Positions 1 through 35,127 of a stretch of 39,434 nt of DNA are shown here, piece by piece. The stretch's first letter is position 1; each line of letters begins with the position of its first letter. Origin of the DNA: a virus (Duplodnaviria > Caudoviricetes); the IMG/VR virus record IMGVR_UViG_3300020042_002437, positions 1-39,434 of that record; one strand, given 5' to 3'. The position numbers and the translations under genes are program-made. The notes beneath the pieces are model-generated. The model did not search any database, was not told the DNA's origin, and worked only from the letters and a program-made list of their open reading frames with translations.

Positions 1-167
1 CGAGCATTGACGAGAGCGGTGCGCTGCTGTCGGAAGACTACCACTTCTGCGAACTGTTTCGCAAGCACGGGGGGAAGATATACGCCCACCCCTTCGTGAA
101 ATTAGACCACGTTGGGACATACACCTACAACGGGGACATTTTGAAATCGGGCGGCAACCTAAAGTAA
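1..167 (+). CDS. 3' end of a GT-A/GT2-like glycosyltransferase-like protein (partial, not in ORF track)
   Basis: Frame from nt 3 reads SIDESGALLSEDYHFCELFRKHGGKIYAHPFVKLDHVGTYTYNGDILKSGGNLK* (TAA 165-167). It aligns with the C-terminus of 37800-38534 (GEDYLFCDRAREQGFEVWIDPTIKLGHMGVQEYEG). Confidence 0.75.
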   Translation, partial: SIDESGALLSEDYHFCELFRKHGGKIYAHPFVKLDHVGTYTYNGDILKSGGNLK

Positions 168-179
168 GGAGCAAGCGAC

Positions 180-776
180 ATGGAATTGAAAATGAATAAA
201 GCAGCGGCAGTTTTGAAACTGCTACGAAAAGGTTATTCTGCTAAGGAAATACAGGAACAGCTTGGGGTAAGCCTAAGCTACGTGCATCTACTAAAGAAGA
301 AGTTAGCAGAAGGTATAGGGGAAGTGGTAGAAACGGTGCGACAGACTGCCACAGAACACAATAACAAGATCAAAGAGATAATTACAGACGGAAAAGCACA
401 ATCTAAGACAACTATTCTTAGCATGACTCCGGAATTTGCCTTCTCAATATCGCAGGGTAGGCAGAAGCGCCGCGAGGAAGCAGAAGCAGAGGCAAAAGCT
501 AATGCTGACGTAGACGATATCCTTGACAAACGCGCAGCCACTTACGGTAGCTTCATTAACGTAGCGCTTTTTGCACAGGAAATGAAAGAACTCATCCGTG
601 GCGCCCTAGACGAACAAAATGCAGGTCTACAAGCAGACCATCAAGAAGCCCTTGATATGATAACGAGTAAGATTGCGCGTATCATCATTGGTGACTCAAA
701 TCATATAGATAGCTGGATTGATATAGCGGGGTATGCTACGTTAGTGGCTGATCGCCTCCAAGGGAAATCTAGATAG
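180..776 (+). CDS. N-terminal HTH plus C-terminal DUF6378-like domain protein
   Basis: HTH pattern LLRKGYSAKEIQEQLGVSLSYV. The C-terminal ILDKRAATYG...KIARIIIGD...DSWIDIAGYATL resembles phage DUF6378 (recalled). RBS AAGGAG at 166-171. Confidence 0.7.
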   Translation: MELKMNKAAAVLKLLRKGYSAKEIQEQLGVSLSYVHLLKKKLAEGIGEVVETVRQTATEHNNKIKEIITDGKAQSKTTILSMTPEFAFSISQGRQKRREEAEAEAKANADVDDILDKRAATYGSFINVALFAQEMKELIRGALDEQNAGLQADHQEALDMITSKIARIIIGDSNHIDSWIDIAGYATLVADRLQGKSR

Positions 777-777
777 C

Positions 778-1452
778 ATGACAGCATGGTCCTATAGCAG
801 TATCAAGACCTTCGACCAGTGTCCGAAGAAGTACTTCCACCTCAAGATTGTGAAGGACGTCAAGGATATTCCGGGGGAAGCTGCTGACTATGGGACCGCA
901 GTCCATGGAGCCGCCGAGTTGTTCATTAAGGATGGTACACCCATCCCTGAGAAGTTTTCTTACATGCGACCCATCATGGAGCCACTGGCTGCTAAGAAAG
1001 GTACAAAGCACACCGAGTTGCGGCTAGGTGTCAGGAAGACGGATACTGGTTACGAGCCTACCACCTTCTTTGCCAAGGATGTGTGGTGGCGCGGCATCGT
1101 CGATTTGCTGATCGTCAATGGTAGCACAGCTTATATGATTGACTACAAGACGGGCAAGAACGCCAAGTACGCAGACATGAAGCAGCTTGACTTAATGGCA
1201 GCGGCCACCTTCGTGCATTACCCAGAGGTGCAGAAGATCAAGTCAGCATTAGCCTTCGTGGTTAGCAACGAGTTCCCTAAGAAAGTACACGTACGAGAGA
1301 AGCAGGATGAGTATTTTTCTGTGTTTAACGACCAGTTAGATCAGTTGGAATCTGCCATGGATAATGGTATATGGAACGCCAAGACAAGCCCACTATGCGG
1401 ATGGTGCCCAGTTAAAAGCTGCGAACACTACAAGCCGCCACGGAGAAGATGA
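778..1452 (+). CDS. PD-(D/E)XK exonuclease, Cas4/RecB-like
   Basis: SYSSIKTFDQCP, GTAVH, E...RGIVDLL...IDYKTGK and QLDLMA motifs. C-terminal CGWCPVKSC completes a four-Cys set. Confidence 0.9.
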   Translation: MTAWSYSSIKTFDQCPKKYFHLKIVKDVKDIPGEAADYGTAVHGAAELFIKDGTPIPEKFSYMRPIMEPLAAKKGTKHTELRLGVRKTDTGYEPTTFFAKDVWWRGIVDLLIVNGSTAYMIDYKTGKNAKYADMKQLDLMAAATFVHYPEVQKIKSALAFVVSNEFPKKVHVREKQDEYFSVFNDQLDQLESAMDNGIWNAKTSPLCGWCPVKSCEHYKPPRRR

Positions 1453-1733
1453 TGGCACGGAACTACAGGAGCGAATACGACACATACCAAGGCAGCGAAC
1501 AGCAGAAGAAGAACCGAGCGCAGCGCAATGCGGCCCGTGCTAAGATGGCTAAAGCTGGTAAGGTACATAAGGGTGATGGCAAAGACGTTGCCCATACGAA
1601 AGCATTTGACAAAGGCGGCACTAACAAGACAGGGCTGCGTGTAGAAAGTAAGGCCACTAACCGCTCATTTAAGCGGGACAGCAAGGGCAACCTAGTATCG
1701 GAAGTGAGTACGCGAGAGCGCAAGAAGAAATAA
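1449..1733 (+). CDS. Small basic HNH-like protein
   Basis: GDGKDVAH...KGGTNK..LRVESKATNRS matches the phage HNH-like DVDH...GG.N...NR pattern, with Asp replaced by Ala. Confidence 0.65.
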   Translation: MMARNYRSEYDTYQGSEQQKKNRAQRNAARAKMAKAGKVHKGDGKDVAHTKAFDKGGTNKTGLRVESKATNRSFKRDSKGNLVSEVSTRERKKK

Positions 1734-1751
1734 TACCGCAAGGAGCAAACT

Positions 1752-3293
1752 GTGGAAATCATTGACAACAAGGCGCTGCTAGTCAGCGCTCAAGACCCGT
1801 CTGTCATCACGGATCATATACATAAGAGCGCTGCCGTTAAGGAAGGCGTGGTTGTCAAATGGGGACACACTGAAGCTGAGATACTAGCTGGGCTGGGGTT
1901 CATCGACACACCATCGCCCATGCTTAAGTCCTATGAGTGGACAGGTAAGCTAACTCCGTTCGAGCATCAAAAGGTTACAGCCTCTTTCTTGTCAATCCGC
2001 AAACGCGCATTCTGCTTCAACGAACAGGGTACAGGTAAGACAGCCAGCGTCATATGGGCTGCGGACTACCTCATGAAACGTGGTGATATCAAACGTGTGC
2101 TGGTGCTATGCCCACTTTCTATCATGAAATCTGCGTGGCAACAGGATTTGTTTAAGTTCGCTATGCACCGTTCGTGCAGCGTAGCGCATGGTGCCGCTAA
2201 GCAACGTGAGAAGATCATTGCAGCAGGGGCCGAGTTCGTCATCATTAACTTCGATGGGCTGGCTATCGTGAAGGACCAGATCATTGCCGAGGGGTTCGAC
2301 CTTATTGTGATCGACGAAGCAAACGCCTACAAAAATGCACAGACCAACCGTTGGAAAACAATTAAACAAATAGTTAACGCGCTGAATCCGCGTATCTGGA
2401 TGCTTACAGGTACGCCAGCAGCACAAAGCCCCCTTGATGCTTACGGCCTCGCTAAGTTAGCTGATGGCCCCAACTGCCCTAAGTTCTACGGTCAGTACCG
2501 CGAACAGGTTATGATGAAGGTGACCCAGTTCAAATGGGTTCCTAAGCCGCACTCGCAGGATGTGGTGCATAGTATTCTTCAGCCAGCCATACGGTTTGAG
2601 AAGAAGGATTGCCTTGACCTACCAGAAGTGACGCACATTGAACGCGAAGCGCCGCTCACCCCACAGCAGCAGAAATACTACAACAAGCTAAAGAGCCAGA
2701 TGCTGTTCGAAGCCGATGGCGAAGAGGTCAGCGCGGTGAACGCTGCCGCCCGTATTAACAAGCTACTCCAGATCAGCGGAGGCGCGGTATATACGGATAC
2801 TGGAGAAGTCCTAGAGTTCGACGTATCCAACCGACTGAACGTGGTGTTAGAAGTGATCGAGGAAGCCAGCAACAAGGTACTGGTCTTTGTGCCGTTTACT
2901 CACACCATTGAGTTGCTACGTGCCAAGCTAGGTAAAGCTGGTGTCCCTTGTGAGGTCATCAACGGTAAGGTGTCGATGAACAATCGCAGCGACATCATCC
3001 ACCAGTTCCAAACGCAACCCAACCCACATGTGCTTATCATTCAGCCACAGGCTGCATCGCACGGACTTACACTTACGGCAGCAGACACAATCATTTGGTA
3101 TGCCCCGGTGACAAGTGTAGAAACCTACCTCCAAGCCAATGCCCGTATTGATCGTCCCGGCCAGAAGAACGCCATGACCATCGTGCATATCAAAGGCAGC
3201 GAGGTGGAAGACCGCTTATACAATATGCTTCGCGGTAATATCGAGAACCACAAACGTATCATTGATTTATACAGACAAATGACGGAGGAATAA
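1752..3293 (+). CDS. SNF2-family (SF2) helicase/ATPase
   Basis: EQGTGKT (motif I), IVIDEA (II), LTGTP (III), HGLTLTAA (V), QANARIDRPGQ (VI). GTG start with AAGGAG RBS. Confidence 0.95.
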   Translation: MEIIDNKALLVSAQDPSVITDHIHKSAAVKEGVVVKWGHTEAEILAGLGFIDTPSPMLKSYEWTGKLTPFEHQKVTASFLSIRKRAFCFNEQGTGKTASVIWAADYLMKRGDIKRVLVLCPLSIMKSAWQQDLFKFAMHRSCSVAHGAAKQREKIIAAGAEFVIINFDGLAIVKDQIIAEGFDLIVIDEANAYKNAQTNRWKTIKQIVNALNPRIWMLTGTPAAQSPLDAYGLAKLADGPNCPKFYGQYREQVMMKVTQFKWVPKPHSQDVVHSILQPAIRFEKKDCLDLPEVTHIEREAPLTPQQQKYYNKLKSQMLFEADGEEVSAVNAAARINKLLQISGGAVYTDTGEVLEFDVSNRLNVVLEVIEEASNKVLVFVPFTHTIELLRAKLGKAGVPCEVINGKVSMNNRSDIIHQFQTQPNPHVLIIQPQAASHGLTLTAADTIIWYAPVTSVETYLQANARIDRPGQKNAMTIVHIKGSEVEDRLYNMLRGNIENHKRIIDLYRQMTEE

Positions 3294-3294
3294 A

Positions 3295-3564
3295 ATGACT
3301 GAGACTACAATGTTTGAACGCCCCCCAGTATTTAATTTTAAGGTGGGTGACCGTGTCGAGGTGAAAGAGCACCTGCACCTTAGAGCTACTGGCTGCACCA
3401 AGGGGTCATATGCCCTGACCTACCCTGAGGGTTTCACGGTAGTGGATATAATTTCGCCTAACAGACATACCCATGAATATCAGTGTGAACCAATCGTTGA
3501 AACACCCCATTCTAGAACGATGCTTATTGAAGAAAGATATCTCAAGGAGCTTGACACTGTATAG
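3295..3564 (+). CDS. Hypothetical protein (FKVGDRV SH3/KOW-like start)
   Basis: GGAGG RBS at the end of the helicase gene; fills the gap between neighbours. Confidence 0.7.
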   Translation: MTETTMFERPPVFNFKVGDRVEVKEHLHLRATGCTKGSYALTYPEGFTVVDIISPNRHTHEYQCEPIVETPHSRTMLIEERYLKELDTV

Positions 3565-3579
3565 TACGGGGTCTAGAAG
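3551..3579 (+). promoter_or_regulatory. Sigma70-type promoter
   Basis: TTGACA (3551-3556), 17-nt spacer, TAGAAG (3574-3579), upstream of the 3614 gene. Confidence 0.7.
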
Positions 3580-3613
3580 GGGACTACGGCAATAGCCGAG
3601 CAAGGAGCAAACC

Positions 3614-4018
3614 ATGTCAGAACCAGTACTAATCAACGACCTCGTGGCTGCGTACCGCAACATTCGTGCGGCGGTTGCAGCGGAGGAAGAAGCCCACGAT
3701 ACTAAACTTAGGGGTCTGAAAGACCAGTTGGAAATTATCTCCACTGAGCTTCTCAACTTCTGCAACTCGCAGAACCTCGACAGTGTCCGCACCCCTGCTG
3801 GCACTTTATCCCGCCGTGTCCAAACGCGATATTGGACAACAGATTGGGAACATATGTACAAGTTTATCGCAGACAACGATGTGCCTTTCGTCCTCGAAAA
3901 GCGTATTCACAATGGCAACATGAAGCAGTTTCTGGAGGAGAATCCGGACGTTCTCCCTATCGGTCTTCAGATCGACAACAAGTACGTAATCCAAGTCCGT
4001 AAACCAACTGAGAAGTGA
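3614..4018 (+). CDS. Conserved phage replication-module protein (N-terminal coiled coil)
   Basis: Strong RBS; coiled coil followed by SVRTPAGT...DW...F...LEKRI, typical of the gene preceding SSB in such modules. Confidence 0.75.
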   Translation: MSEPVLINDLVAAYRNIRAAVAAEEEAHDTKLRGLKDQLEIISTELLNFCNSQNLDSVRTPAGTLSRRVQTRYWTTDWEHMYKFIADNDVPFVLEKRIHNGNMKQFLEENPDVLPIGLQIDNKYVIQVRKPTEK

Positions 4019-4026
4019 GAATACCT

Positions 4027-4962
4027 ATGAGCAATATAACCATATTTGAAGAACCATCTAATGTCGCCACGGTGCACCGTGAGTCTCGTCGTATGGACCG
4101 TATGTCCAGCGGCGGTGGCGGAAGCACCATGCGCCGCATCCAGCTTAGCAATGGCCGCACTTTCAAGCGCGTCATCAATGGTGAGCAAATCGGTAAGGCC
4201 GTTAGCGACAACCTCGACGTCATCGTGGTAGACTGGCTCGTTGAGCCTTCGCGTAAATTCTATGCGGCTGCTTACGACAAAGATGCCAAGGCCACACTGC
4301 CTGACTGCTGGTCAAACGATGGTGTTGCGCCAGAAGCAGGAGCCAACAATAAGCAGAGTAAGGCATGTGCTTCATGCCCTAAGAACGTCAAGGGTTCCGG
4401 TTCCGGTGGTAAGGGTAAAGCTTGCCGCTACGAGCGCCGCCTTGCAGTCCTCGTTGCTGGTGATCCGACTGGTGATTTGTACCAGATTGCTATCCCGGGC
4501 GCTTCGCTGTTCAGTGACAACGATGGCAAAGTCTATGGCTTTGAAGGATACAAAAAGTTTCTTCTCGCCAGTAAACACGCTCTCGACACGGTGGTAACAC
4601 GCCTCGTCTATGATACCGAAGCAGACACGGCCAAGGTTGGGTTTAAACCTATCCGTCACTTGACCGAGGTAGAAGCAGCGTTTGTGGACGCAGCGCAGGA
4701 CGATCCCGCCACAGAGAAGTACACAATGCTGACTGCTGGTGCTATAGATACCACTAAGGCTATTGCTGCTCCTGCTCCTGTTGTCGCTATCGCCGCACCC
4801 ACTGTGAGCGTTAATCCGTTCGGTGATGACGATGACGAAGACGAAGTGCCAGCTACCCCAGTCAAACGGGCCGCTAAACCGAAGGTTGTTCCTGAGGTAA
4901 AGCCCGAACTGGCATCTGTAATGGGTGAGTGGCTTAAGGAAGAAGAGGATGACTTCGCATGA
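4027..4962 (+). CDS. Putative ssDNA-binding/recombination protein with Cys cluster and acidic tail
   Basis: PDCWS...CASCPKN...KACRY Cys cluster, Pro/Ala linker and acidic aromatic end EEEDDFA as in SSBs. ATG 4027 preferred to GTG 4015. Confidence 0.65.
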   Translation: MSNITIFEEPSNVATVHRESRRMDRMSSGGGGSTMRRIQLSNGRTFKRVINGEQIGKAVSDNLDVIVVDWLVEPSRKFYAAAYDKDAKATLPDCWSNDGVAPEAGANNKQSKACASCPKNVKGSGSGGKGKACRYERRLAVLVAGDPTGDLYQIAIPGASLFSDNDGKVYGFEGYKKFLLASKHALDTVVTRLVYDTEADTAKVGFKPIRHLTEVEAAFVDAAQDDPATEKYTMLTAGAIDTTKAIAAPAPVVAIAAPTVSVNPFGDDDDEDEVPATPVKRAAKPKVVPEVKPELASVMGEWLKEEEDDFA

Positions 4963-5192
4963 GTATGCGTGGTTACAGCATCCGTGTAGCCGAGGCTATC
5001 GGGGAGGCCGATATTAACCTCCTCGGGGTACAACTTGGGCGAGCTTGTCTTGCCCAAGATATCCCTGTCGCAGAAGTTGCGGAGAGCCTCGGGATTACAC
5101 GCCAAACGGTATATCACTGGTTTCTTGGGTTGAGTGAACCAAGAGGCAAATCATGTGAGGCCATCCAGTCCTACCTAGCTAATTTGGGTTGA
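4959..5192 (+). CDS. XRE/Cro-like HTH DNA-binding protein
   Basis: VAEVAESLGITRQTVYHWFLGLSEPR; ATGA overlap with the upstream gene. Confidence 0.85.
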   Translation: MSMRGYSIRVAEAIGEADINLLGVQLGRACLAQDIPVAEVAESLGITRQTVYHWFLGLSEPRGKSCEAIQSYLANLG

Positions 5193-5248
5193 GCTTTCAC
5201 AAAGAGCAAACGATAAGTGGGGGTTTCCCCGCAACGGTGAGTGATGCA

Positions 5249-8089
5249 ATGCAACAATATGATCTCTTAAGCCTCGTGCAGCCAGCCGGGGGCTGGTTCG
5301 CTATCACAGGTATCAAAGGGACAGGGAAAGACGCCGATGTCCGCCAAGAACTTGTAGCTACGCGGGAAGAAGCAGATGCTTTAATAGAGCGCTTTGTCGA
5401 TGCTGGCCGAAATGTATTCTTCGGGGTAGCCAAGTACACAACTGGTGATAACCGTAAGAAAGAGAACGTCCTTGGTCTCAAGGCGTTCTGGCTCGATGTA
5501 GACTGCGGCCCAACCAAAGCTGAACCCGACCCGAAGACCGGACGACCTGATGGTTACATAGACCAGAGTGCTGCCATAGCGGCGCTGCGTACTTTTTGCG
5601 AATCAGTAGGTCTTCCTGCTCCTACTATAGTAGACTCAGGTGGTGGTATCCACGTATACTGGGCGCTTACGGAAGAAATCACACGGCGGGACTGGGAACC
5701 TGTAGCCGAACGCTTCAAAGAAGTGTGCAAAACCCAGAACTTCTACGTCGATAATGCGGTGTTCGAAGTGGCACGTATCCTACGTGTGCCCGGTACATTT
5801 AACTTCAAAGAAGCAGAGCCTCGTCCGGTTGAGTTTATCCATGTGGGCAAGCCGACCTCCTTTGAGGAGATACGCTCCATCTTTGGGGTCAAGGCGCAGC
5901 CGACAATCTTCGATGAGGACTACCAACCGTCACCACGCCAACTGGCACTGACAAATGGTATAGGCTACAACTTCAGACAAATCATGCAGCGCACAGCTAG
6001 GGGTGACGGGTGTAACCAACTCCTACACGCGTACAAGCACCAAGATACCGTCAGTTACTATGAATGGTTCTACGCGCTGTCGGTGGCAGCTATGTGCGAG
6101 GACGCAGACACTGCGGTCCATATGATGTCGAAGGGCCACCCAGACTATGATCCGGAGTCCGTAGACAGAAAAGTAGAGACCATCCGCAAAGCAACTAGCT
6201 GCGCTAAGTTTCGTAGCGTTAACCAAGAGCTATGTGAGGGGTGTCCGCACCTCGACAAGATCAAAGGCCCCAAGGAACTGGGCAAAGTGGTCAAGGAGTC
6301 CAGCGAGGACTTCATCATAGTGGAAAACGAAGAGGGTGTAGCCGAGCATATTGACATCCCCAAGTATCCGTTCCCGTTTTACAGAGGTGATGGCGGTGGT
6401 GTTTGGAAGAAGCCGCCCAAGGATGATGAGGAAGCTGAGCCGAAGATGGTATACGCAAACGATTTCTATGTCGTGAAACGTATGTACGATCCCGGTGAGG
6501 GCGACTCCGCGCTTATGCGTGTACACCTACCGCAAGACGGGCTGCGGGAATTTACCGTTGCCATGTCCAAGGTTACCCAGAAGGATGAGCTTCGCAAGAT
6601 TCTCTCCGCTAACGGGGTGTATAGCTACGGCAAGCGTTTCGATACGCTGATGGAATATGTACACGCATCCGCTGAAAACTTACAAGATAGACAGAAAGCA
6701 GAAATCATGAGGCAACAATTTGGTTGGGTAGACGGTAACAGTCGGTTTGTTCTGGGCGATCAGGAGATGACCATTGACGGCAATATCTATTCGCCGCCGT
6801 CCAAGGCAACAGGCAAGCTAGCTAAGTTTATTGGCCCTGTCGGGTCGATGGATAAATGGAAAAGCGTATGGAACCTGTACGGTGAGGAGGGCATGGAAGC
6901 CCAAGCATTTGCCGCGCTCAGCGCGTTCGGGTCACCGCTGCTTAAGTTTCTTAACCAAACAGGGGCCGTCATCAACCTGTTTAACTCACACTCTGGTACG
7001 GGTAAGACCACCATCTTGAATATGGTGAATAGCGTCTACGGGCATCCTCAACAACTGCGCTTAAAAGAAATCGACACCATGAACGGTAAGCTTCAGTGGG
7101 TCGGCGTCCTCAACAATCTGCCAGCCACCATGGACGAGCTTACCAACGTCACATCTAAGGAATACTCAGACTTCTTATACTCGCTGTCGAACGGTAAGGG
7201 TAAGGAGCGCATGTTGGCCGGGGCCAACGAACTGCGTGAGAACAATACCACATGGCAGAACATCACGGTTTCGACGTCGAACTCTTCGTTTGTCGAGAAG
7301 TTGTCGATCTTGAAGGATAACCCAGAAGGTGAGCTTATGCGCCTTATTGAATACCCTATAGGGTTGGTAGAATCCATCAATACCGCAAATGCCAAAGAGC
7401 TATTTGATAAGGTGCTGTTCTCTAATTACGGCCACGCCGGACCTATTTACATCCGCTTTGTACTAAACAACATGGAGTATGTGGTGGGTAAGTGCCTCCA
7501 GATGCAGGAGAAGATTGACCGTGAACTTCAGCTTCTACCCAAGGAGCGCTTCTGGTCAGCCACAGTAGCAGCTAATATCGAAGGCGGTATCCTCGCCAAG
7601 AAGTGCGACCTAATCAACTGGGATATGAAGCGCATATACAACCACGCTTGCGATATGGTCGAGCGGCTGCGACAAGATACTAAGGCACCACTTAACGGTG
7701 TCGAGCAGGTTATAGGTGACTACCTCTACCGTAATATGCAGAATATCTTAGTTGTGAACGACAAGTCAGACCGGCGCACTAAGCTGCCCTCCGCGCCTAT
7801 ACGCGAACCAAAGGGTGAGTTGCTGATCCGTATCGAGCCGGATACCGAGATGATGTTTTTGATTGCCAAGCCGTTTCGGGAATACTGCGTCAAGTACCAG
7901 ATCAACTACAACGACACTCTAGACAAGTTAGAGGCACAAGGTCGGTTAGTGAAGCGTGACAACAAGCGTATGTCCAAGGGTATGGCTGTCTCAGGTGATA
8001 ACGTCCACTGCCTATGGTTTAAGCTGGACCCAGACTTTGTGAGCGTCAATGAGTACGCCAAGGAAGATGGTATAGTCGATGCAGATTGA
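5249..8089 (+). CDS. Primase-helicase: AEP/RepB-like primase plus DUF927-type P-loop helicase
   Basis: WLDVDC, SGGGIHVYW and ARILRVPGTFN primase motifs; Cys-rich middle (SCAKF...CEGCPH); FGW, SGTGKTT Walker A and MDE Walker B. ATG 5249 preferred to TTG 5189. Confidence 0.88.
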   Translation: MQQYDLLSLVQPAGGWFAITGIKGTGKDADVRQELVATREEADALIERFVDAGRNVFFGVAKYTTGDNRKKENVLGLKAFWLDVDCGPTKAEPDPKTGRPDGYIDQSAAIAALRTFCESVGLPAPTIVDSGGGIHVYWALTEEITRRDWEPVAERFKEVCKTQNFYVDNAVFEVARILRVPGTFNFKEAEPRPVEFIHVGKPTSFEEIRSIFGVKAQPTIFDEDYQPSPRQLALTNGIGYNFRQIMQRTARGDGCNQLLHAYKHQDTVSYYEWFYALSVAAMCEDADTAVHMMSKGHPDYDPESVDRKVETIRKATSCAKFRSVNQELCEGCPHLDKIKGPKELGKVVKESSEDFIIVENEEGVAEHIDIPKYPFPFYRGDGGGVWKKPPKDDEEAEPKMVYANDFYVVKRMYDPGEGDSALMRVHLPQDGLREFTVAMSKVTQKDELRKILSANGVYSYGKRFDTLMEYVHASAENLQDRQKAEIMRQQFGWVDGNSRFVLGDQEMTIDGNIYSPPSKATGKLAKFIGPVGSMDKWKSVWNLYGEEGMEAQAFAALSAFGSPLLKFLNQTGAVINLFNSHSGTGKTTILNMVNSVYGHPQQLRLKEIDTMNGKLQWVGVLNNLPATMDELTNVTSKEYSDFLYSLSNGKGKERMLAGANELRENNTTWQNITVSTSNSSFVEKLSILKDNPEGELMRLIEYPIGLVESINTANAKELFDKVLFSNYGHAGPIYIRFVLNNMEYVVGKCLQMQEKIDRELQLLPKERFWSATVAANIEGGILAKKCDLINWDMKRIYNHACDMVERLRQDTKAPLNGVEQVIGDYLYRNMQNILVVNDKSDRRTKLPSAPIREPKGELLIRIEPDTEMMFLIAKPFREYCVKYQINYNDTLDKLEAQGRLVKRDNKRMSKGMAVSGDNVHCLWFKLDPDFVSVNEYAKEDGIVDAD

Positions 8090-8273
8090 GGGCGTAGACT
8101 ATGAAGTTAACTGGCGCGCATTCCAGAAGGGCACTTCTTTGTTCTTCCCTTGCCTCCATATACCACGCGCTCGGGCACAACTTATGGTAGTCATCAAACG
8201 CCTACGCATCAAGATATTGGTCAAGCCCTCAATCGAAAGTGGAATTAGGGGTTTACGGGTATGGCGAATGTAA
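8079..8273 (+). CDS. Small hypothetical protein, last gene of the replication block
   Basis: Overlaps the primase stop; 64 aa ending GLRVWRM. Confidence 0.75.
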   Translation: MQIEGVDYEVNWRAFQKGTSLFFPCLHIPRARAQLMVVIKRLRIKILVKPSIESGIRGLRVWRM

Positions 8274-8280
8274 GTATACG
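8252..8280 (+). promoter_or_regulatory. Predicted sigma70-type promoter for the small RNA
   Basis: TTTACG (8252-8257), 17-nt spacer, TATACG (8275-8280). Predicted start about 8287, at the base of a hairpin. Confidence 0.55.
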
Positions 8281-8286
8281 GACCTC

Positions 8287-8359
8287 GGAAGTTTGCTCCT
8301 TCCGCTCGGTGCATTGCATCACTCACTACCCCCGGTTGCTCACTCAGCCGGGGGTTTTT
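8287..8359 (+). ncRNA. Candidate multi-target antisense (anti-RBS) small RNA
   Basis: Hairpin GGAAG-tttgctc-CTTCC. 8291-8301 is complementary to the RBS motifs at 166-176, 1740-1750 and 3602-3612. 8310-8326 is the exact reverse complement of 5237-5253. Ends in an intrinsic terminator. Confidence 0.7.
8329..8359 (+). terminator. Rho-independent terminator
   Basis: CCCCCGGTTG-ctcact-CAGCCGGGGG followed by TTTTT, at the convergence of the two gene blocks. Confidence 0.9.
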
Positions 8360-11300
8360 ATTGTCCTTCAGCTTCCAGAAGCTGCCGGATACGCTCATCC
8401 TGTAGCATATCCCGTATCGGTATTTTCTCGTTAACCCCAAGACCGTAGCTCTTGTCAGAAGCATCTTTCTCCTTGGCTTTGAACGATTTCCGCTTGGTGT
8501 CTTTGGACATTGAGTTCGACGGGTAGTTTTCGTCGTACACGTTAATGTCGTATTCCACCTGCTGCAACGCCAGTTCATTCTTAGGCGATGGGTCTGCATC
8601 GTACTTGAGGATAGCGCGGTACCGCCGATCAAGAAGCTCGGTCTTCTGTGCCGCAACTTCCCGCTCAACGTCACCCGCCAGCATATCAAGCTGCATGTTA
8701 CGTGATGTCTCGGCGTCCTTGAAGCCAAGGCCCTGCAAAATAGTTTTGGGTGTTGTGTAGTAGCTAGGGTCCTTAAGCTGGATGTCCTTGTCTTTCCCAA
8801 TCTTCAACCCTTCCTCTTGGAGACGTAGGGCTTTCAGCGGGTTGCGTATAACCGCTGGGACAGCCGCTTCTATCGCTTGGTCAATATCCCCAGCGTTCCA
8901 CGCCTTCACCGCCCTATCGTACGAAATCAAGACACTACCAAACGGGCCAAGTGCTATTTTTCCCATAGCTTCAAAAGCCCGAACTTCAGATGTATCACCC
9001 TTTAACTGCAAATTACTCCCGATAAACGGCAGGTCGCCCATGGCAACAGAACCAGATATATCCACATCAAAAAGTGCCGGTATACCCATGTCCGCAGCGG
9101 TTGCTAGATTGGCTGCTGACTTATCGCTAAGGCCAAACGCTTTCTGCATGGTACTACCCATACCAAATGTATCGTCAATCCAAGTGGATCGGATATAGTA
9201 TTCCATATCCTTTTTACCTAGTTCGTTCCCGTTCTCATCAGCATACTTAAGGAACTGACGCTCGACGGTTTTCTCCCCGAGGACACCCTCCTTGGTATCC
9301 TTCTCCTCATCATCATCGTCCTCAAGTAGGCTTTCGACAAACTTAACAAGGGTATAAGCGCCATAACCCAAAGCGTAAAACTGAGTAGAGCGAATACCGC
9401 CGTATAGCATGGTGACGGCAGCGGAACCAAAGAACACACGGGCTGCGGCTGCTTTACCTTCCTTATTTAAGAAGGGTATCATACCAACGAAGCTGCGTAG
9501 CAGTAACGACGACAGCGAATGTATATACGAGGTCATCTGAAGCGCAAAACGACCCGCAGGAGCCTTAGCGAAGCGTGACTTATTCCAGTTTGTGAAGTCA
9601 AACATAGCCTTGTTAGTTAAGTCAGCCGCTAACTCACGAGCTTCTATACCCGCTTGCTCTGCTGTCTTACCTTGGCCTATTGCCCGTTCGTAGGCCAGAT
9701 CAAAGCTGGACATATACATGATCGAACGCCCGATTGTTTCGGTAGAATGGAACATGAAACCCATGGCATTCATCGCGGCAGCAGAACCCCGCTGGCCTGC
9801 GGTTAGTAATTCACCACGGCGTACCGCCTGCTGGAAATTAAAGTCTCCGGTAGGTGTGTTGCTGCGATCATATAGCTGTGCGCTTGAGGCAAAAGTGCTC
9901 TCAATGACATCATGGTCTTGCGCGTACTCCCATGCAGCCACCGTCTGCTTGTAACGATCCGGGTCGTTCTTCTTAAGGCTACGCATATAGGCGCTGTTTT
10001 CAAACTTAAACTCTGGAGCTTGCAGCGCAAGGTTACCATCCTCATCACGGAACGGGTTGGGGATTTCTCGGCCTGCCAAGAACGAAGTCGTGTACCGCGC
10101 AGCCATAGCAATAGTCTTAGGTTCCCCAAATTCGCCAGATAGGACTGGAAGCCCTAAAGTATGCAACTGGGTAAGGTTAATCATAGCAGAGGCTGCTGAA
10201 GACAAGTGATGGTAGAACGTAACCTTGGACCCAAATGCTATAAATGCGTTAACGGCATTAAGGAAGGCGCTATTCGTGTCAGGAGCCATCACGCTCTTTA
10301 CCCGTTCTTCAATTTCAGACCTGAGCGCGTCGCGGTAGGGTGTCAGTTCGTCGCTTTCGCTTTCTGCTTTAGCTTCTCCAATGATGTTCTGAAATTTGTA
10401 GTTATACGCCAGACGTCCAAGTTGGTTCGCTGATGCTACTGCCGTAGCAGCAAACGTGCGAAGCGCATCGGTACTAAAACCAGTTACAAACTTGCGGTGG
10501 ACAAAACGCCGCCGCATGTCTGCCTCAGGCAGTGCGGTCAGGTACATCTGGAAGATGAGGTCGCGCAAGCCCTCTATATCGCCATCTTGAACCTTAGGTT
10601 CACCCTTGGTATTTTTACCGTCGAGGGCATCCAAAATACCTTTGAGCGCTGAACTAGCGTCTTTGCTAGCGATTGTGTTGCGGAGGTCCGCACGGCTAGT
10701 ACCCGCTACCTGTGGACGGGTGTCTTTGTTAGCTTTAAGTTGGTCCTGCAATGCCTTTATTTCTGCGGCAGACTCCCGCATATAGAAGTCGTTACCCACA
10801 CTAAGCCAATACTCCCCGAACCGCTTAACGGGGAAGTAGATCGTGCGCTCCCGAGCCTTATTAAACATCTGCTCAACGGAAGACTTAAGTTTTACAGCAT
10901 CGTTGGAGTCAAACTTAGCGTCATCAATCCGCTGCATAAGCAGGCGGTAATGCTCATTGAAGTTGGCGCGGTGGAAGTCACGAGCAGCCTTGAAGATTTT
11001 CTTACCTTCTGGCGGCAAGTCGTTCCAACCTTGGACGGTGATTGGCTTTCCATCTTTATCAAGTACAAGGTTGCCCTTGTCATCTTTAAGTGTACCACCA
11101 AAATACAGGTCCTTAATGGCTTCCTTACGTCTGGTGATCTGCCCCTTCAGGCTTGTCCGTTTACCCGGGCTAGTTTCTGTAGCTAAACTAGCCTCAAGCT
11201 CTTTAAGCTTGGAGTCGATACGCATGTACTCCACCGCAGTCGCAGCCAAGCTCGGGTCTGCATCCAGCATGTTTGAGTACATGATATTGTCATCTAGAGT

Positions 11301-14300
11301 TGTATTACCATCTGGGTTCCGCGCAGCAAACGCTGCCCATTCTTGCTCAAGCGCACTGGCCCGCCGCACGATACGGTTGACGTACGGAATATATTCCTCC
11401 CGCATCATAGTATCGATCTTGCCAATCGACTTCATACCAGCAAGCTTAGCCAAACGGAAAACATCTTCGATCTGTTGGAAGCCAAGTACGAAGTTATATA
11501 AAGAAAGCGGCATACTCTGAGTAAGAGATGCTATGATACCACTATTGGCACCCGGGTTCTGCATAGCCTCCACAAGGCGCTTAATAAGCCCCTTGGTTTC
11601 GCTGTTGTTGCGGCTCTGGATAATGCGCTTCTGAAGCTTATTGACGTCCCTACCTCGGATACCAGCCGCAGCTTCAAGACGTTTAATCTGCGCCTTAGTC
11701 AGCTTAACCGAAACAGCTTCCTCAACATTGGCGTCAGTTAGGGGTTCCGTGCCACCTCCATCGCCTGCTCCAAGGTCGCCCCGTTCTCCAGTGCGGTCAC
11801 GACCTTCATAAGATGGGCTGAGTAAGGATTCCCCGGTGCCTCCTTCTCCGCTAGGTCCGCGTACGTCCCTAGCGTTCCTATCGCCATCTCCATCGGATGT
11901 TTGCTCTGCATCGCCATCCGTAAATTTGTTTCCGCGATACTCGATGCTAATGTCTGAGTTTTGGCCATTAAAAAGCTCCACGCCAAGTTTAACGATGTCG
12001 GCGTAATCTGCCGCAATCGTGTCTGCAAAATTGTCCTTAAACCGACGATAGGCGAACCCTGTGTCAGCTTCCATGTTTAAGTCTATATCCTGATACTCTG
12101 CTGGGAATCTAGCATTATGGCTACGCTCCTTGTAGTGTGCAAGCTCATGGATCATAGTCCCGAAGATGCCGTACCCAGCGCGCAATCCGTCCGCATACTT
12201 GGGTACCAGTGGGTTAATAAAGCTACCAGAGAATGGTAGCCGGATCGAGACACCACGATACTCAGGGTCAAATGATACACCGATAGCTTCATCGCGTAAG
12301 CCGGGATAACCCATAACACGCGCAACTTCGTCACGTAGCTTGAGGAATGCCTCACCATTAAAGCTCATGAAGTCATCAAAGCGCTCGCCAAACTGGCGGC
12401 GCATAAAGTCCGGGATTGGCATTTTCTCGCCGGTAGACTTTATAACTACGTCAGCGTTGTCGTGGACCATAACCAGATTGGTATCAATTAGATCAGGGTT
12501 TATTCTTAGGTCATTTGCGCTTGGGATGCCCGCCTTTAGTTCTTCAGGGGTTAGCTCAGGCATACGTTGCCCGTTGACCAATAACGAACCATCGTCGTCT
12601 ATCTTAATAATGTCACCTTCTGCAATCCGCGTAAAGGCCGTATCTACGACTGGGATGTCAGGTGTGAGGTCTATAGGTGCAGTAAGCTGCCCATTTTCAT
12701 CGAAGTACTGGATAACTCCAAAAGACGTAGCCTCACCCGCACGACTCTTATACGCATATACGGCGTCGATATACGCCTTAACTTTATTAAAGTCGGCCTT
12801 GGCGTCGTCGGTAAAACTCTGGCGGTTAAAGTTAAATGGATAGCCCGGTTCATCTGGCTTCACAGACGGTACGATGTCTACGTAGAACCGGTACGGAACG
12901 GGATCGCTATATATGTTGGATGGGTCTTTACTAACCGAGTTTGAGAATTGCCACAACCCGTTCGATAGGATGTGCATATTCTGACCGTATTTTTGGGTCG
13001 TTTGGTTACGTGTTACATAGACCTTGGCGGTACCCCATGGGAACTTGACCCCAACAAACTGGGTGTAATCTTGGATTGGGAAGTTGCTACCAATGTCCAC
13101 CGCATAAGCACGCGAACCTGTATAGTCCGAGAACGACACCTCAATATCCGCAAATAGCGGGCTAAGCATTAAAGACGGAACACTTTGTGCTTGCCACGGT
13201 AGCGGGTTAATTTTGTAATCCCCTGACTCCTCAGGGATAGTCAACTGGATAATGGTACCATGGCCGTTAGGGAACGCCGCATAGTCAGCGGGTTCTAAGT
13301 CACGAATATCTATGAACGGGCGGGCATCAGGGTCATCCAGTCCATCAAAAAGCTGTTCGCCTGTAGCGTTAAGTTCAGCAATACGCCCATCACGCGCAGT
13401 AACCACGCGGATGTTCTTGTTGGCATACAGAAAGAGCATCTTGGCAATACCGAAGCCGCCAGCGTTCTTGTCGCCTTCCTTGTCGGTACCAGCAATCTGG
13501 AGGAACTTACCGCCTAACAGTTCGGGTGTCATACCGATACCATTGTCTTTAACCGTCAGGGTGCGCTCATCCCGCGAGATAGATATTTCGATCTTACCCT
13601 GCGTAATCTGCCCCTTGTCCACCGCAGTGCGGGTGGCGTCGAACGAGTTCTGCAACACTTCCTTGATGCAAACCTGACCCATATTGGTTGGGTCACCATA
13701 AAGCTGCGGGCCAAGCATCTTGGCCATGCGCTTCGTATTGATACCCGGAGTAGCTCGGATTGTTTCGTACTCAGGGCTATACGGTGTAGCCTGCTCATCT
13801 AGTTCTTCTTTCGGCATGGCATCGACTTCTGCCTGCGCCATGTTGAAGATTTTCTCGGCCACAGTCTTACCGGGCTTACTGTTAATAACCTTTTTAACAG
13901 CTTTACCCTTGGCTCCCTTATCCCCAGTCGCCTTGATCTTACTTGGGCCGCGTGCCTTTGAGGGCTTTGCTCCTGCCGTAGTAGGCGCAGCAACGGATAC
14001 CGGGGCGGCTTGCGTAGCAGCAACTTGTTCTTTCCCCCATTGTTGGCCTTCTTTGTAAGCAGCGAGGACTTCGGGGCTACCCCGCTCAAAGGCAAGAACT
14101 TGTTCGTCAGTTAGAGGCTTAATATCGGGGTTCTTTGCTTCCCGCACACCTTCACCAAACATACCGTGTTCGGCGGTGTTAACCATATAACCACGGCGCT
14201 CGGCTTCTTTGTACCCAAAACGCGTTAGGTTGTCATAGATTTCCTGTGGGGTGTAATCTGCGGGGTCATAAATCTCTTTCTCTTCACGGCTAAGCGGAGC

Positions 14301-16871
14301 TTCCTGTACAGATTTTGGTACAACTGTAGTAGGGCCTGTTTTCACAGCTTTAGTGGGAAGTGGCCCCTCAGTGTCTATCATACGGCGAATAGCTTCTTCA
14401 ACTGGAATGCCAGCTTCAAGCAGGGCGGTTATGTCACCCATAAACTGACCAGTTTCTATGCTAGCTAATCTAGCTTTGCCGGTGACGTTATTTTTTACTA
14501 CCCGCACTGGGAAGGGGGCGCCATCAAGGTCAAACGCATCGTAATCTGTCGTCAAAATATCTGATACAACGGAGCCATCTTTAACGCGAACATTCCTAAT
14601 GCCATCATTATCATTGCGTACAAATCTTTGCTGTGTATTATTAGGATTTCCTATTTCTTCTACAACACTTTCTACCCAGCCGTCTTCGGGACTAAACTGA
14701 GCAGGCGTAGTTTCAGCCGTAGCGGCCTCGGCCACCGTAGTGCGCGAGGTAGACGGTGCCTTCTTGGGAACTGGCTTACCAGTGAGTGTCTCCAAGCCAC
14801 GGTCAAGCACTGACCCAATGGCATCATATGGATCGACTTCAGGGCTTTGGACTATGATACGCGCAGCCAGCGTCTTCTGCTGGGAGTTTAGCTCGTTCTT
14901 CTTGTTAAGAACACTTCCGTAAGGTTCTACAAAATCAAGAGCCGAGGCTGCAAATACCCGCTCGATGATGGGTACCGCAGCTTGAACTTGCTTAGCCGTA
15001 GGCTCAATTAGTGTACCGACTCCTGTTCCCGTGCCAGTTGTAGGAATTGATACGCTAGATACAGACCCGTCCAATCGTCCATCGTCATCCGCTCCAGCGA
15101 CTGTAGTACCGGCTTTGGTCGCCAAGGATTCTCGATCAGTAGCAGTGCCTGCTCCACTTCCTCCGCCGACATCCACTCCGGTACCAGTTGTAACTGGGAC
15201 ATCTAGAACTCCTCTGGTTCCTGATACTATGTTAGCAGTAGCAAGGTTAAATAATGCTTCAGCGCTATCCTCGACAAATTTAACAGCATCGTTCTTCTTC
15301 ATGCCGGGGTTAGCCTTCATAACCTTCCCGACTTGTTCCGCTGCAAGGCTCTGAAACTCTGCCATAACAGCCGCAGGGTCTACTCCCTGCTTCTTGGCTT
15401 TCCCCATGGCTTTTTGTGCGACTTCAGTGACGCCGCGCAGACCGCTACCAACGATACCACCTATGAGTGCGCTGTACCCAACGCCTTCTGTAACGTCACG
15501 GTCTTCGTCGTATAGTCCCTTGGCGATCACGTTGGTGCCAAGTTGTACGCCACCTTCTTGGGCTGCTTCCCCGGCACCGCGCACAGCAATACGCCCAGCC
15601 GCACGGCTTTCAACCGCATTTAAGGCACGCGAGATAGACTTACTAATTATGGTAGGGTCTACGCGGCCAGCAGTACCACGGCGCACGATATCGGTAACGG
15701 TATCCAAAGTAGCGCCACGTTTAGCGACAGGGAGACTTTCAAAAATACGTCTTGCCGCGCCAACTTCAGTAGCGCCCATACCTGCATTTAACACGATAGC
15801 AGTAAACGCATTCGCGTCAGGGATTACTTTACCTGTCCGCTGCTCAGTAGCTTGGATATCTTGAATGCCCTGTTGCGCACCCTGCACGGTGCCAAGCCCG
15901 TACTCAAGTGGGCGGGCAGCTTTAGCAATAGCTTCTGCCCGCGCTGCGCCTACCAGACCTTTACCGGCACCAGCAGCCTTAGACAACAAACCGGGGCCTA
16001 AGAACGTACCGACACTACCTACACCGCCACCAACATCCGCAAGGAACTTTGCAGTGGCGTCATACTTAAGGGCTTCACCCTGTGCGCCAAACGCATCGGC
16101 AGCAAACTTACCTGCTGCGTCGAGGTCGGACTTACCCGCAGCCTTGAGAGTTTCAGCGCCGGGGAGGCCAAATGTTCCAAGGCCGTAACCCGCAGTAGCC
16201 TCAATGGCACCGGGGATACCGGCAATTATTTCAGTAGGAACACGTAAGGTAGAACTGAGAGTCTCACGGAACTTGTTTGCTTTTGGAGCCTTAAGCCCCG
16301 TTTTGGTTATAGTATCAAACTCATTCTGGAGTGCTTTTACTTCTCTACGAGCAAGGTCTGCTTTCCCTTTGTACGCGGCAAAAGCTTCCGCAGCACCACG
16401 ACCTTGGTTTTCCTTAGCTGCTTTTGCAGCAAGTTTATCAAACTTAGCAGCATCCGCTGCAAACTTCTTCTGGGTAGTCGCAATCTGCTTTTGCCGTGCA
16501 GCCAGTTCCTTAGCGGTGTACACCTCAGGGGCTTTGATCTCATTACCCATGACGGTATCATATATACCACCAAAGAAACCACGCTCGGCTTCAAGTTGAG
16601 CTTTGGCCTGTTTCTGGGCGGGTGTTAGAGCGGGGGCTGCGGGCGCAGCGGTAGGTACATCATCCCGAGCCACGCCATCCATTGGCACGGCGTTAGCAGG
16701 TACGGCAGTAGGCGCAGCAATAGGCGCGGTGGGTTTTACCGCGAGCCTCTTAAAGACCTCCGCTTTTGGCAGGTCCGAATAAAATTTACGATGGATCGCA
16801 TCCGCCAACTCGACGTCGCTCATATCGTTGTACTGAGGGTACTGGCGACGGAAGTCGGCAAGATTATCCAT
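8358..16871 (-). CDS. Giant polyvalent internal virion/ejection protein with GHKL ATPase, HEXXH zincin-like and PLxRFG-like regions
   Basis: 2837 aa, last gene of the internal-protein cluster. Motifs: KEVLQNSFDA, KDNGIGM, GGFGIA, HGT; MIHELAH; YFPVKRFG (10810-10839); long helical C-terminus. Confidence 0.8.
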   Translation of the reverse strand: MDNLADFRRQYPQYNDMSDVELADAIHRKFYSDLPKAEVFKRLAVKPTAPIAAPTAVPANAVPMDGVARDDVPTAAPAAPALTPAQKQAKAQLEAERGFFGGIYDTVMGNEIKAPEVYTAKELAARQKQIATTQKKFAADAAKFDKLAAKAAKENQGRGAAEAFAAYKGKADLARREVKALQNEFDTITKTGLKAPKANKFRETLSSTLRVPTEIIAGIPGAIEATAGYGLGTFGLPGAETLKAAGKSDLDAAGKFAADAFGAQGEALKYDATAKFLADVGGGVGSVGTFLGPGLLSKAAGAGKGLVGAARAEAIAKAARPLEYGLGTVQGAQQGIQDIQATEQRTGKVIPDANAFTAIVLNAGMGATEVGAARRIFESLPVAKRGATLDTVTDIVRRGTAGRVDPTIISKSISRALNAVESRAAGRIAVRGAGEAAQEGGVQLGTNVIAKGLYDEDRDVTEGVGYSALIGGIVGSGLRGVTEVAQKAMGKAKKQGVDPAAVMAEFQSLAAEQVGKVMKANPGMKKNDAVKFVEDSAEALFNLATANIVSGTRGVLDVPVTTGTGVDVGGGSGAGTATDRESLATKAGTTVAGADDDGRLDGSVSSVSIPTTGTGTGVGTLIEPTAKQVQAAVPIIERVFAASALDFVEPYGSVLNKKNELNSQQKTLAARIIVQSPEVDPYDAIGSVLDRGLETLTGKPVPKKAPSTSRTTVAEAATAETTPAQFSPEDGWVESVVEEIGNPNNTQQRFVRNDNDGIRNVRVKDGSVVSDILTTDYDAFDLDGAPFPVRVVKNNVTGKARLASIETGQFMGDITALLEAGIPVEEAIRRMIDTEGPLPTKAVKTGPTTVVPKSVQEAPLSREEKEIYDPADYTPQEIYDNLTRFGYKEAERRGYMVNTAEHGMFGEGVREAKNPDIKPLTDEQVLAFERGSPEVLAAYKEGQQWGKEQVAATQAAPVSVAAPTTAGAKPSKARGPSKIKATGDKGAKGKAVKKVINSKPGKTVAEKIFNMAQAEVDAMPKEELDEQATPYSPEYETIRATPGINTKRMAKMLGPQLYGDPTNMGQVCIKEVLQNSFDATRTAVDKGQITQGKIEISISRDERTLTVKDNGIGMTPELLGGKFLQIAGTDKEGDKNAGGFGIAKMLFLYANKNIRVVTARDGRIAELNATGEQLFDGLDDPDARPFIDIRDLEPADYAAFPNGHGTIIQLTIPEESGDYKINPLPWQAQSVPSLMLSPLFADIEVSFSDYTGSRAYAVDIGSNFPIQDYTQFVGVKFPWGTAKVYVTRNQTTQKYGQNMHILSNGLWQFSNSVSKDPSNIYSDPVPYRFYVDIVPSVKPDEPGYPFNFNRQSFTDDAKADFNKVKAYIDAVYAYKSRAGEATSFGVIQYFDENGQLTAPIDLTPDIPVVDTAFTRIAEGDIIKIDDDGSLLVNGQRMPELTPEELKAGIPSANDLRINPDLIDTNLVMVHDNADVVIKSTGEKMPIPDFMRRQFGERFDDFMSFNGEAFLKLRDEVARVMGYPGLRDEAIGVSFDPEYRGVSIRLPFSGSFINPLVPKYADGLRAGYGIFGTMIHELAHYKERSHNARFPAEYQDIDLNMEADTGFAYRRFKDNFADTIAADYADIVKLGVELFNGQNSDISIEYRGNKFTDGDAEQTSDGDGDRNARDVRGPSGEGGTGESLLSPSYEGRDRTGERGDLGAGDGGGTEPLTDANVEEAVSVKLTKAQIKRLEAAAGIRGRDVNKLQKRIIQSRNNSETKGLIKRLVEAMQNPGANSGIIASLTQSMPLSLYNFVLGFQQIEDVFRLAKLAGMKSIGKIDTMMREEYIPYVNRIVRRASALEQEWAAFAARNPDGNTTLDDNIMYSNMLDADPSLAATAVEYMRIDSKLKELEASLATETSPGKRTSLKGQITRRKEAIKDLYFGGTLKDDKGNLVLDKDGKPITVQGWNDLPPEGKKIFKAARDFHRANFNEHYRLLMQRIDDAKFDSNDAVKLKSSVEQMFNKARERTIYFPVKRFGEYWLSVGNDFYMRESAAEIKALQDQLKANKDTRPQVAGTSRADLRNTIASKDASSALKGILDALDGKNTKGEPKVQDGDIEGLRDLIFQMYLTALPEADMRRRFVHRKFVTGFSTDALRTFAATAVASANQLGRLAYNYKFQNIIGEAKAESESDELTPYRDALRSEIEERVKSVMAPDTNSAFLNAVNAFIAFGSKVTFYHHLSSAASAMINLTQLHTLGLPVLSGEFGEPKTIAMAARYTTSFLAGREIPNPFRDEDGNLALQAPEFKFENSAYMRSLKKNDPDRYKQTVAAWEYAQDHDVIESTFASSAQLYDRSNTPTGDFNFQQAVRRGELLTAGQRGSAAAMNAMGFMFHSTETIGRSIMYMSSFDLAYERAIGQGKTAEQAGIEARELAADLTNKAMFDFTNWNKSRFAKAPAGRFALQMTSYIHSLSSLLLRSFVGMIPFLNKEGKAAAARVFFGSAAVTMLYGGIRSTQFYALGYGAYTLVKFVESLLEDDDDEEKDTKEGVLGEKTVERQFLKYADENGNELGKKDMEYYIRSTWIDDTFGMGSTMQKAFGLSDKSAANLATAADMGIPALFDVDISGSVAMGDLPFIGSNLQLKGDTSEVRAFEAMGKIALGPFGSVLISYDRAVKAWNAGDIDQAIEAAVPAVIRNPLKALRLQEEGLKIGKDKDIQLKDPSYYTTPKTILQGLGFKDAETSRNMQLDMLAGDVEREVAAQKTELLDRRYRAILKYDADPSPKNELALQQVEYDINVYDENYPSNSMSKDTKRKSFKAKEKDASDKSYGLGVNEKIPIRDMLQDERIRQLLEAEGQ

Positions 16872-34410: not shown

Positions 34411-35127
34411 CTAGATAAACATCTGACGCGGAGCGATCCGCAACGGAGCCTTTTCGCGGTCTTCATCCGCAGCCTGCTGCCAAGCTTCATCATACATCTG
34501 CTTCAACATCCCTGTACGTTCCATAGCGCTGGGGAGTTTAAGCGACAAATAATACGCTAGCCCTGCTACCATGCAGGGGAGAAAACGGAATGGGATGTCT
34601 TGCGTGTTAAGACCGTCACCTGCATCCTGTATACGGCGCAGGCGGTAGTAGAAGAAGGTATAATAGTTGCTTTGGTCTGGGGCTGGCCACACGTTAATCT
34701 GCGGGTAGGAAATATTATTACCCTGTCCATTCGCACCAGACTGACGGTTAATCCACACTTGGATAGGACGTCCTTGAGCGTTCTTATTTGGGATCGTGAT
34801 GTACGTGTCGGCGCTAATACGGTTGATGTTGATATCAAGCTGGTTCGAACTTGTACCAGCATTTGTACGTATCACCTGCTCTAACAGGTCAATCGTGTCG
34901 ATTGGCAAGTTGTAGGTGATTGTACCCTGCACCATAGCAATAGAACCTTGGTCGATAGTCCACAGGTTAATACCACGGTTTGCCCACTCAATGGTAAGCA
35001 AGTTCAAGCTGCGACGCGCAGTACGCAGATCATAACCGGTACGAAGCTCAGCCCCACAACGCTCAAAAGCCTCTTCGACTAGGTCGTTGAGGTTAAGGTC
35101 AAATGAGGTGCTTCCGCTTGTGGTCAT
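34411..35127 (-). CDS. Head-tail adaptor / tail tubular protein A-like
   Basis: VEEAFERCG...ARRSLNLL..EWANRG...VWPAPD...PFRFLPCMVAGLAYYL. Confidence 0.75.
   Translation of the reverse strand: MTTSGSTSFDLNLNDLVEEAFERCGAELRTGYDLRTARRSLNLLTIEWANRGINLWTIDQGSIAMVQGTITYNLPIDTIDLLEQVIRTNAGTSSNQLDININRISADTYITIPNKNAQGRPIQVWINRQSGANGQGNNISYPQINVWPAPDQSNYYTFFYYRLRRIQDAGDGLNTQDIPFRFLPCMVAGLAYYLSLKLPSAMERTGMLKQMYDEAWQQAADEDREKAPLRIAPRQMFI

Follow-up and report, generated by a model that had tools for sequence, protein, structure and literature searches.

The stretch that follows the last early gene of this phage (8286-8361, + strand) is likely a conserved small RNA gene of about 75 nt. From its complementarities to ribosome-binding sites (RBSs), and from how these are kept in relatives, we put the probability at roughly 0.7 that the product is a trans-acting antisense RNA with two modules, which would block translation of early and replication genes via base pairing. 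In that case, a single small RNA would probably silence the replication genes of the phage itself. The window that we analysed is the entire virus record of 39,434 bases, with a completeness of 63% according to CheckV. Its early block occupies bases 1-8273 on the + strand and encodes a PD-(D/E)XK nuclease, an SNF2 helicase, an HTH protein, a DUF927 primase-helicase and a 64-aa ORF, and the genes from 8358 onward, virion proteins among them, lie on the - strand. The HTH_3 protein (4959-5192, +) is located upstream of the primase leader, and 78 of the 80 loci selected by primase have it in the same place. The primase-helicase of 946 aa (5249-8089, +), with DUF927 and PHROG primase/helicase matches, is followed by the conserved 64-aa ORF (8079-8273, +) as the last early gene. 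This ORF shows invariant W/F/PC/LRxW residues and has no Pfam, PHROG or isolate match, the Atlas giving unnamed viral clusters only; we consider it a candidate for acting together with the RNA or regulating it. From the other side, a 2837-aa ORF on the - strand (8358-16871) converges on the terminator of the element.

The element folds as a hairpin, a linker and a terminator (fold z -4.45), a layout shared with its relatives; its 5' end is inferred from promoter spacing. A -35-like hexamer, TTTACG (8252-8257, +), lies inside the 64-aa ORF, whose last codons double as the -35. Of 100 loci, 77 use TTA and 16 use TTG for the Leu codon at this position, compared with TTA at 553 of 8012 primase Leu codons. 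A spacer of 17 nt (16-19 nt in relatives) separates it from the -10-like hexamer TATACG (8275-8280, +), which agrees with TATAAT at four or more of six positions in 88 of 100 loci and gives the weaker half of the promoter evidence, as the coding control reaches 21/100 but is less AT-rich. Hairpin 1 (8287-8303, +) pairs GGAAG with CUUCC around a UUUGCUC loop, and two-sided changes are found at four of its five stem pairs among 44 sequences. It contains module 1 (8291-8301), complementary to a tag on early-gene RBSs. The linker (8310-8326, +) is module 2, complementary to the RBS and ATG of the primase gene, and an intrinsic terminator-like hairpin with a U tail, whose loop repeats UCACUCA, closes the element (8328-8362, +). 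Across 88 loci the terminator stems hold 31 G-U against one A-C combination, which identifies the + strand as the RNA strand.

These features are those expected at the sequence level of a trans-encoded base-pairing sRNA: promoter-like and intrinsic terminator-like signals, a location apart from the targets, and short complementarity to target start regions that is kept through covariation. Rfam gave no real match, the one hit in 4900-8500 being a chance snoRNA match with an E of 0.77, and nothing reached the gathering threshold in the 20-kb regions of three relatives. RNA run X1 (share 0.05) contributed five contigs, one over 5175-5413 and none over the element, the data being contigs only and the predicted RNA being of about 75 nt. 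The terminator loop CUCACUCAG (8339-8346) repeats the seed of module 2 and might form a bulged helix with the RBS of ORF 4027 (4007-4026), where we saw no covariation. Two relatives, L188 and L174, carry a second copy of module 1 in the terminator loop (about 10050-10075).

Searching with exact hairpin 1 retrieved 119 viral stretches; among those that lack an upstream primase and 64-aa ORF, most are unrelated coding matches. Where both genes precede the hairpin, the primase identity ranges from 44 to 100%, and the hairpin begins 8-16 nt past the stop codon in the 24 loci measured. Overlapping searches provided 249 oriented loci, which filters for a full primase, the small ORF and a terminator-like end reduced to 196, and finally to 100 unique loci in 44 clades; the presence of a terminator in this set is thus a selection filter and not a result. 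Selection by primase only gave 80 loci, with the small ORF in 70 and the exact hairpin in 25, and of the 61 whose downstream DNA is long enough, 51 have a variant of the module. Six loci (L232, L276, L279, L284, L297 and L293) have an extra 5' hairpin between the small ORF and module 1.

Three near-complete relatives have genomes of 61-62 kb. One of them, G003, with direct terminal repeats, has DNA polymerase, terminase, portal and capsid matches and no integrase among the 54 ORFs scanned. The phage collection contains no close cultured relative: the best primase identity, 29%, is to Pseudomonas phage Rollin, and the distant Rhizobium phage RHph_TM3_14A reaches 24%. Inspection by eye of the junctions and early RBSs of distant cultured relatives found neither the hairpin nor the tag. 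A prophage and host search returned four genome stretches, from which no host was inferred, since three lack the promoter-hairpin-terminator layout and the fourth (L137) is an apparently mis-binned phage contig. L137, an 8-kb contig in a MAG labelled Actinomycetota, contains the element in full at 5001-5070.

The hairpin mirrors the AGGAGCAAAC tag on early-gene RBSs. Within the window, module 1 (GUUUGCUCCUU) is complementary to the RBS of ORF 180-776 (HTH + DUF6378) over 9 nt (166-174, +; ddG -12.4 kcal/mol), to that of the SNF2 helicase gene 1752-3293 at 11 of 11 positions (1740-1750, +; -10.6) and to that of ORF 3614-4018, again at 11 of 11 (3602-3612, +; -16.3), the last of which has a Mu Gam-like match that is weak and below the cut-off. 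In 85 loci selected by the hairpin and not de-duplicated, 156 of 166 early-strand occurrences of AGGAGCAA coincide with an RBS, and AGGAG followed by CAA occurs at 156 of 289 early RBSs versus 3 of 60 late ones. Likewise, in the three near-complete genomes and with a crude ORF caller, at least 8 nt of the tag precede 30 of 174 early-strand ORF calls and one of 152 late-strand calls. Tagged genes tend to head coupled blocks, being themselves overlap-coupled in 7 of 33 cases compared with 49 of 80, although overlap itself constrains the RBS sequence.

Loop and tag change together at the orthologous ORF 3614 RBS. A UUGCUC loop is accompanied by GAGCAA in 66 of 74 loci, most of which were chosen via the exact hairpin, a UCGCUC loop by GAGCGA in 6 of 7, and a UAGCUC loop by GAGCUA in 5 of 6, plus one wobble; in L292 an 11-nt match has changed at two places. 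The switches amount to about two to three independent events, UCGCUC being restricted to one clade pair and UAGCUC having one or two origins. The original GAGCAA is kept in 6 of 21 matches at other RBSs of the UCGCUC loci and in 6 of 14 of the UAGCUC loci.

The element could alternatively work in cis only, as the 3' end of an early polycistronic mRNA that folds back on the upstream RBSs, so that each finished transcript silences itself. The primase start lies 3 kb away on the same transcript, there is no terminator-like site from the primase to the element, and the early operon ends at 8328-8362, all of which would suit such a fold-back. We nevertheless regard it as unlikely, as the -35 and -10 are conserved at synonymous sites right before hairpin 1, and the 8-12 tagged RBSs distributed across 13-18 kb exceed the reach of one 3' end.

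The second module concerns the primase gene. The sequence GTGAGTGATGCAATGCA (5237-5253, +), covering the RBS and start codon of the primase-helicase, is perfectly reverse-complementary to 8310-8326, and G5236 can form one further G-U pair with U8327, as the original prediction had noted; the cofold ddG is -25.3 kcal/mol. That prediction had also taken ATG 5249 as the true start, which the relatives corroborate: 24 of them have their first Met at the aligned position, the ATG closest to the aligned region having been taken as their start, and an in-frame stop lies within 60 nt upstream of the primase start in 84 of 100 loci. The predicted leader hairpin upstream of the RBS (5217-5232, +) is present, its U-G pair being U-A or C-G in relatives, as is a 10/11 match to module 1 (5201-5211, +), from which it had been proposed that the leader may be bound twice. 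The upstream site in the leader was found in 15 of 78 loci, from two clades, and in none of 78 in a control window, in partial favor of such double binding; with a ddG of -5.7, it is a weak secondary site. Given the order of the sites, one RNA molecule could use both the upstream site and the linker only via a pseudoknot-like topology.

We followed module 2 across relatives by masking module 1 and requiring at least eight contiguous Watson-Crick pairs with the locus's own primase start region. Module 2 or an extra hairpin satisfies this in 24 of 100 loci, belonging to 6 of 44 clades, compared with 1.3% of cross-clade pairs and one of 100 loci when a segment within the primase coding sequence is used as control. 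As a permutation of loci takes no account of kinship, we counted by clade instead: when a single locus is drawn at random from each clade, pairing is seen in 3.8 clades, compared with 0.66 under permutation (99th percentile 3). In the window's clade, pairing extends over 8-17 nt and is present in each of the 11 loci. Two-sided changes in the same register occur in L186 (C-G to U-A), L168 (two adjacent) and L167/L239 (A-U to C-G), and L190-type loci combine two-sided changes with a shifted leader. The pairing in clades 3, 7 and 10 probably has a single shared origin. Three further clades match their primase leader by unrelated sequences: UAACCCUCC in clade 19, UUGGUCAUAG over the AUG in clade 28, and CGUCUCAUCU in clade 44, where the match resides in the loop of an extra 5' hairpin and a matching variant is found in L297. 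A search for the linker in metagenomes gave 14 loci, some of them duplicates of viral loci, and the match is kept in seven of the eight in which the leader is visible.

The proposed antisense pairing with the primase RBS and ATG is thus borne out by the covariation that had been suggested as a check, since compensatory changes and three independent sequence solutions in separate lineages point to selection on it. Its scope has to be narrowed: the module that pairs with the primase is accessory, with 6 of 44 clades having it, and the conserved core targets the tag on many other early RBSs. The other 38 clades have no primase match of at least 8 nt from module 2; in four of them, module 1 provides one of 7 nt or more. 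The perfect 17 nt appear to be a strain-level feature, with a selected core of 8-11 nt across RBS and spacer. At positions flanking the primase helices we found no preference for G-U (G-U 10, A-C 14, other 38; in another count, G-U 20 versus A-C 34).

One lineage, clade 14 (L151, L154, L187 and L318), keeps one copy and has lost the complementarity, which the original prediction had named as evidence against it; it retains the linker core, GCAUCACUC, which its primase leader does not match. Its linker and terminator loop are near-identical to those of the window's clade, and its primase is 49% identical. This combination suggests that the RNA gene has been exchanged horizontally. Among the start regions of G003 we found no convincing substitute target for the clade-14 linker.

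The main task of the RNA might instead be to exclude co-infecting relatives in an incompatibility-like manner, by silencing their early genes and primase. Phages whose primases are 44-100% identical have module 1 in common, the linkers and terminator loops form a mosaic, and the clade-14 linker fits the primase leader of clade 10 and not its own. Against this, changes in module 1 or 2 mostly track the phage's own RBSs, and the lack of an integrase among the scanned G003 ORFs leaves a resident immune state not evident, which makes exclusion as the main role somewhat less likely again than folding back in cis.

That a 17-mer should land on a start codon had further been held to be unlikely by chance, a point that calls for correction. 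Markov shuffles of orders 2 and 4 (150 each) give 0.087-0.127 perfect inverted pairs of at least 17 nt per window, and the window contains a separate perfect 19-nt inverted pair (14976-14994 and 34995-35013), unrelated in appearance, with its arms 20 kb apart and both in minus-strand coding regions; fewer than 0.01 such pairs are expected per window, and it is possibly chance. Repeat length alone is therefore weak evidence. Considering also that the match is reduced to 8-15 nt in relatives and absent in most clades, the 17-mer could be a coincidence or the remnant of a duplication, added to what is otherwise a generic anti-Shine-Dalgarno RNA, with about 0.09-0.13 such pairs expected. We judge this improbable, because conservation and covariation in relatives lift the pair above chance: separate lineages show two-sided changes and unrelated matching sequences, and 8-mer matches of the part outside module 1 number 8.1 per kb in primase start regions, 1.2 in other start regions and 0.56 elsewhere, a 14-fold enrichment of primase start regions over background.

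Both copies could also be DNA sites, either operators for the upstream HTH protein or the ends of an invertible segment. The near-palindromic TGCA-N-TGCA, the adjacent HTH gene and the helix flanks devoid of G-U bias would be compatible with this, which we hold to be very improbable: the matching sequences are wholly different between clades and yet always lie on the RBS or AUG, the stems of the element bear the G-U signature of a + strand RNA, and the HTH-primase order is the retained one in nearly all primase-selected loci. Inversion, suggested earlier as an alternative, left no joints in the contigs bridging both sites (four runs of one study, in contigs, which drop rare variants). It is hardly credible that the functional RNA is the - strand, produced by read-through of the converging late genes and acting as a sense-copy decoy for a repressor protein or as a small antisense ORF, for even though that strand reads as a tag in a hairpin and as RBS plus ATG and has a 71-75-codon frame in the window, a frame of at least 60 codons is confined to 12 of 100 loci, which share no start, so that we rejected a conserved minus-strand ORF, and the G-U excess, the promoter and the U tail are all on the + strand.

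For the preferred reading, a trans-acting RNA with two modules, the data show complementarities that are kept and covary in relatives, promoter-like and terminator-like signals, and the strand; transcription, repression and timing are what we infer. The RNA would be transcribed from its own host-type promoter, in addition to read-through from the early operon that ends at the same terminator. The loop UUUGCUC would seed on GAGCAAA and then invade the stem to cover AAGGAG, and the primase RBS, which is without the tag in this lineage, would be served by its own second module. Pairing with the mRNAs in trans would occlude 30S binding, the predicted ddG being -25 kcal/mol at the primase site, between -11 and -16 at tagged RBSs and -6 at the upstream leader site. 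As a small stable RNA, it may rise with genome copy number and thereby exert delayed negative feedback on the replication genes. The purpose, the least certain part, is most likely a shutdown of replication-gene translation before or during late expression.

Several known RNAs resemble the element in part. Plasmid copy-number countertranscripts (CopA, Inc, ctRNA) provide dose-dependent RNA feedback on a replication initiator, with incompatibility as a side effect; they are encoded in cis and match a single leader over their full length. The proposed feedback on replication would be similarly dose-dependent, whereas the element lies on the same strand as its targets and not opposite them. The C4 antisense RNA of P1 and P7 and the CI RNA of satellite P4 act on their own phage's transcript at a distance via short single-stranded modules, and control a single immunity operon of temperate elements. 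The element would likewise be a short phage RNA acting through short modules on a transcript of its own phage. Unlike them, it has no Rfam match, is complementary to 8-12 RBSs throughout the early region, in phages where no integrase was found, and follows the primase gene and the 64-aa ORF instead of residing in the immunity operon of a temperate element. RNase P processing is described for the C4 antisense and P4 CI RNAs in the available part of PMC5499578.

The alphaR8 sRNAs (MmgR, SisA-D) combine a weak hairpin, a short anti-Shine-Dalgarno seed, a Rho-independent terminator and many targets, and have the 10-mer UUUCCUCCCU after the weak hairpin and linkage to an FGase gene, according to the accessible text of PMC12559287. 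The element has the same general build. However, UUUCCUCCCU is absent from 8286-8361, there is no Rfam match, and the neighbours are the primase, the 64-aa ORF and the 2837-aa ORF of the virion region in place of an FGase gene. The seed of the element also lies in the hairpin loop, reads on into the spacer and changes in step with targets that reside in its own genome, and a second, gene-specific module is present. The available sections of PMC12197685 list cis-antisense phage RNAs, namely OOP and aQ of lambda, sar and sas of P22 and STnc6030 of BTP1, of which sar blocks translation initiation. As in this class, a phage RNA is predicted here to repress a phage gene, but those RNAs lie opposite their single target, whereas the element is on the same strand and 3-25 kb from its targets (3-8 kb within the window). 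Trans-acting phage sRNAs that touch replication or lifestyle comprise PreS/LPR1 of lambda, VpdS of VP882 and DicF (PMC12197685; bioRxiv 2024.10.31.621285); their main targets, as described in the accessible parts of these sources, are host mRNAs or Hfq competition, and no co-evolution with a class-wide tag on their own RBSs is described there. Of the features checked for C4/CI, alphaR8 and cis-antisense RNAs, the element has none. By analogy, it would work like an anti-Shine-Dalgarno trans-encoded sRNA, and like C4 and CI in acting on its own phage. The full-text literature searched, in its available portions (including PMC8040213, PMC12197685, PMC12559287 and PMC5499578), holds no description of an RNA joining this hairpin and tag with primase pairing. 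No sequence matching the hairpin occurs in the four supplementary files of PMC10690425 (Fremin 2023) that were searched; the alignment archives lay outside that search, and the motif may be among the unnamed candidates.

How phages that have neither their own RNA polymerase nor obvious repressors shut down early genes is mostly unknown. Here, RNA and targets reside in one genome and co-vary across lineages, thereby offering ready pairs of cognate and non-cognate RNAs and leaders that can be tested without the host. If the reading is true, the RNA would be a model from nature for building compact translational switches with several targets, and it would define a regulon of the phage's own replication genes with class-wide and gene-specific modules in 75 nt. 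As a tentative and rather doubtful extension, this widespread family of uncultured phages of about 61 kb may time its lytic cycle by a modular small RNA and not by a protein: a constant hairpin would read the tag on the RBSs of an entire class of early genes, a swappable module would be re-aimed at the primase in each lineage, and module exchange might silence a competitor's primase while the phage's own leader escapes.
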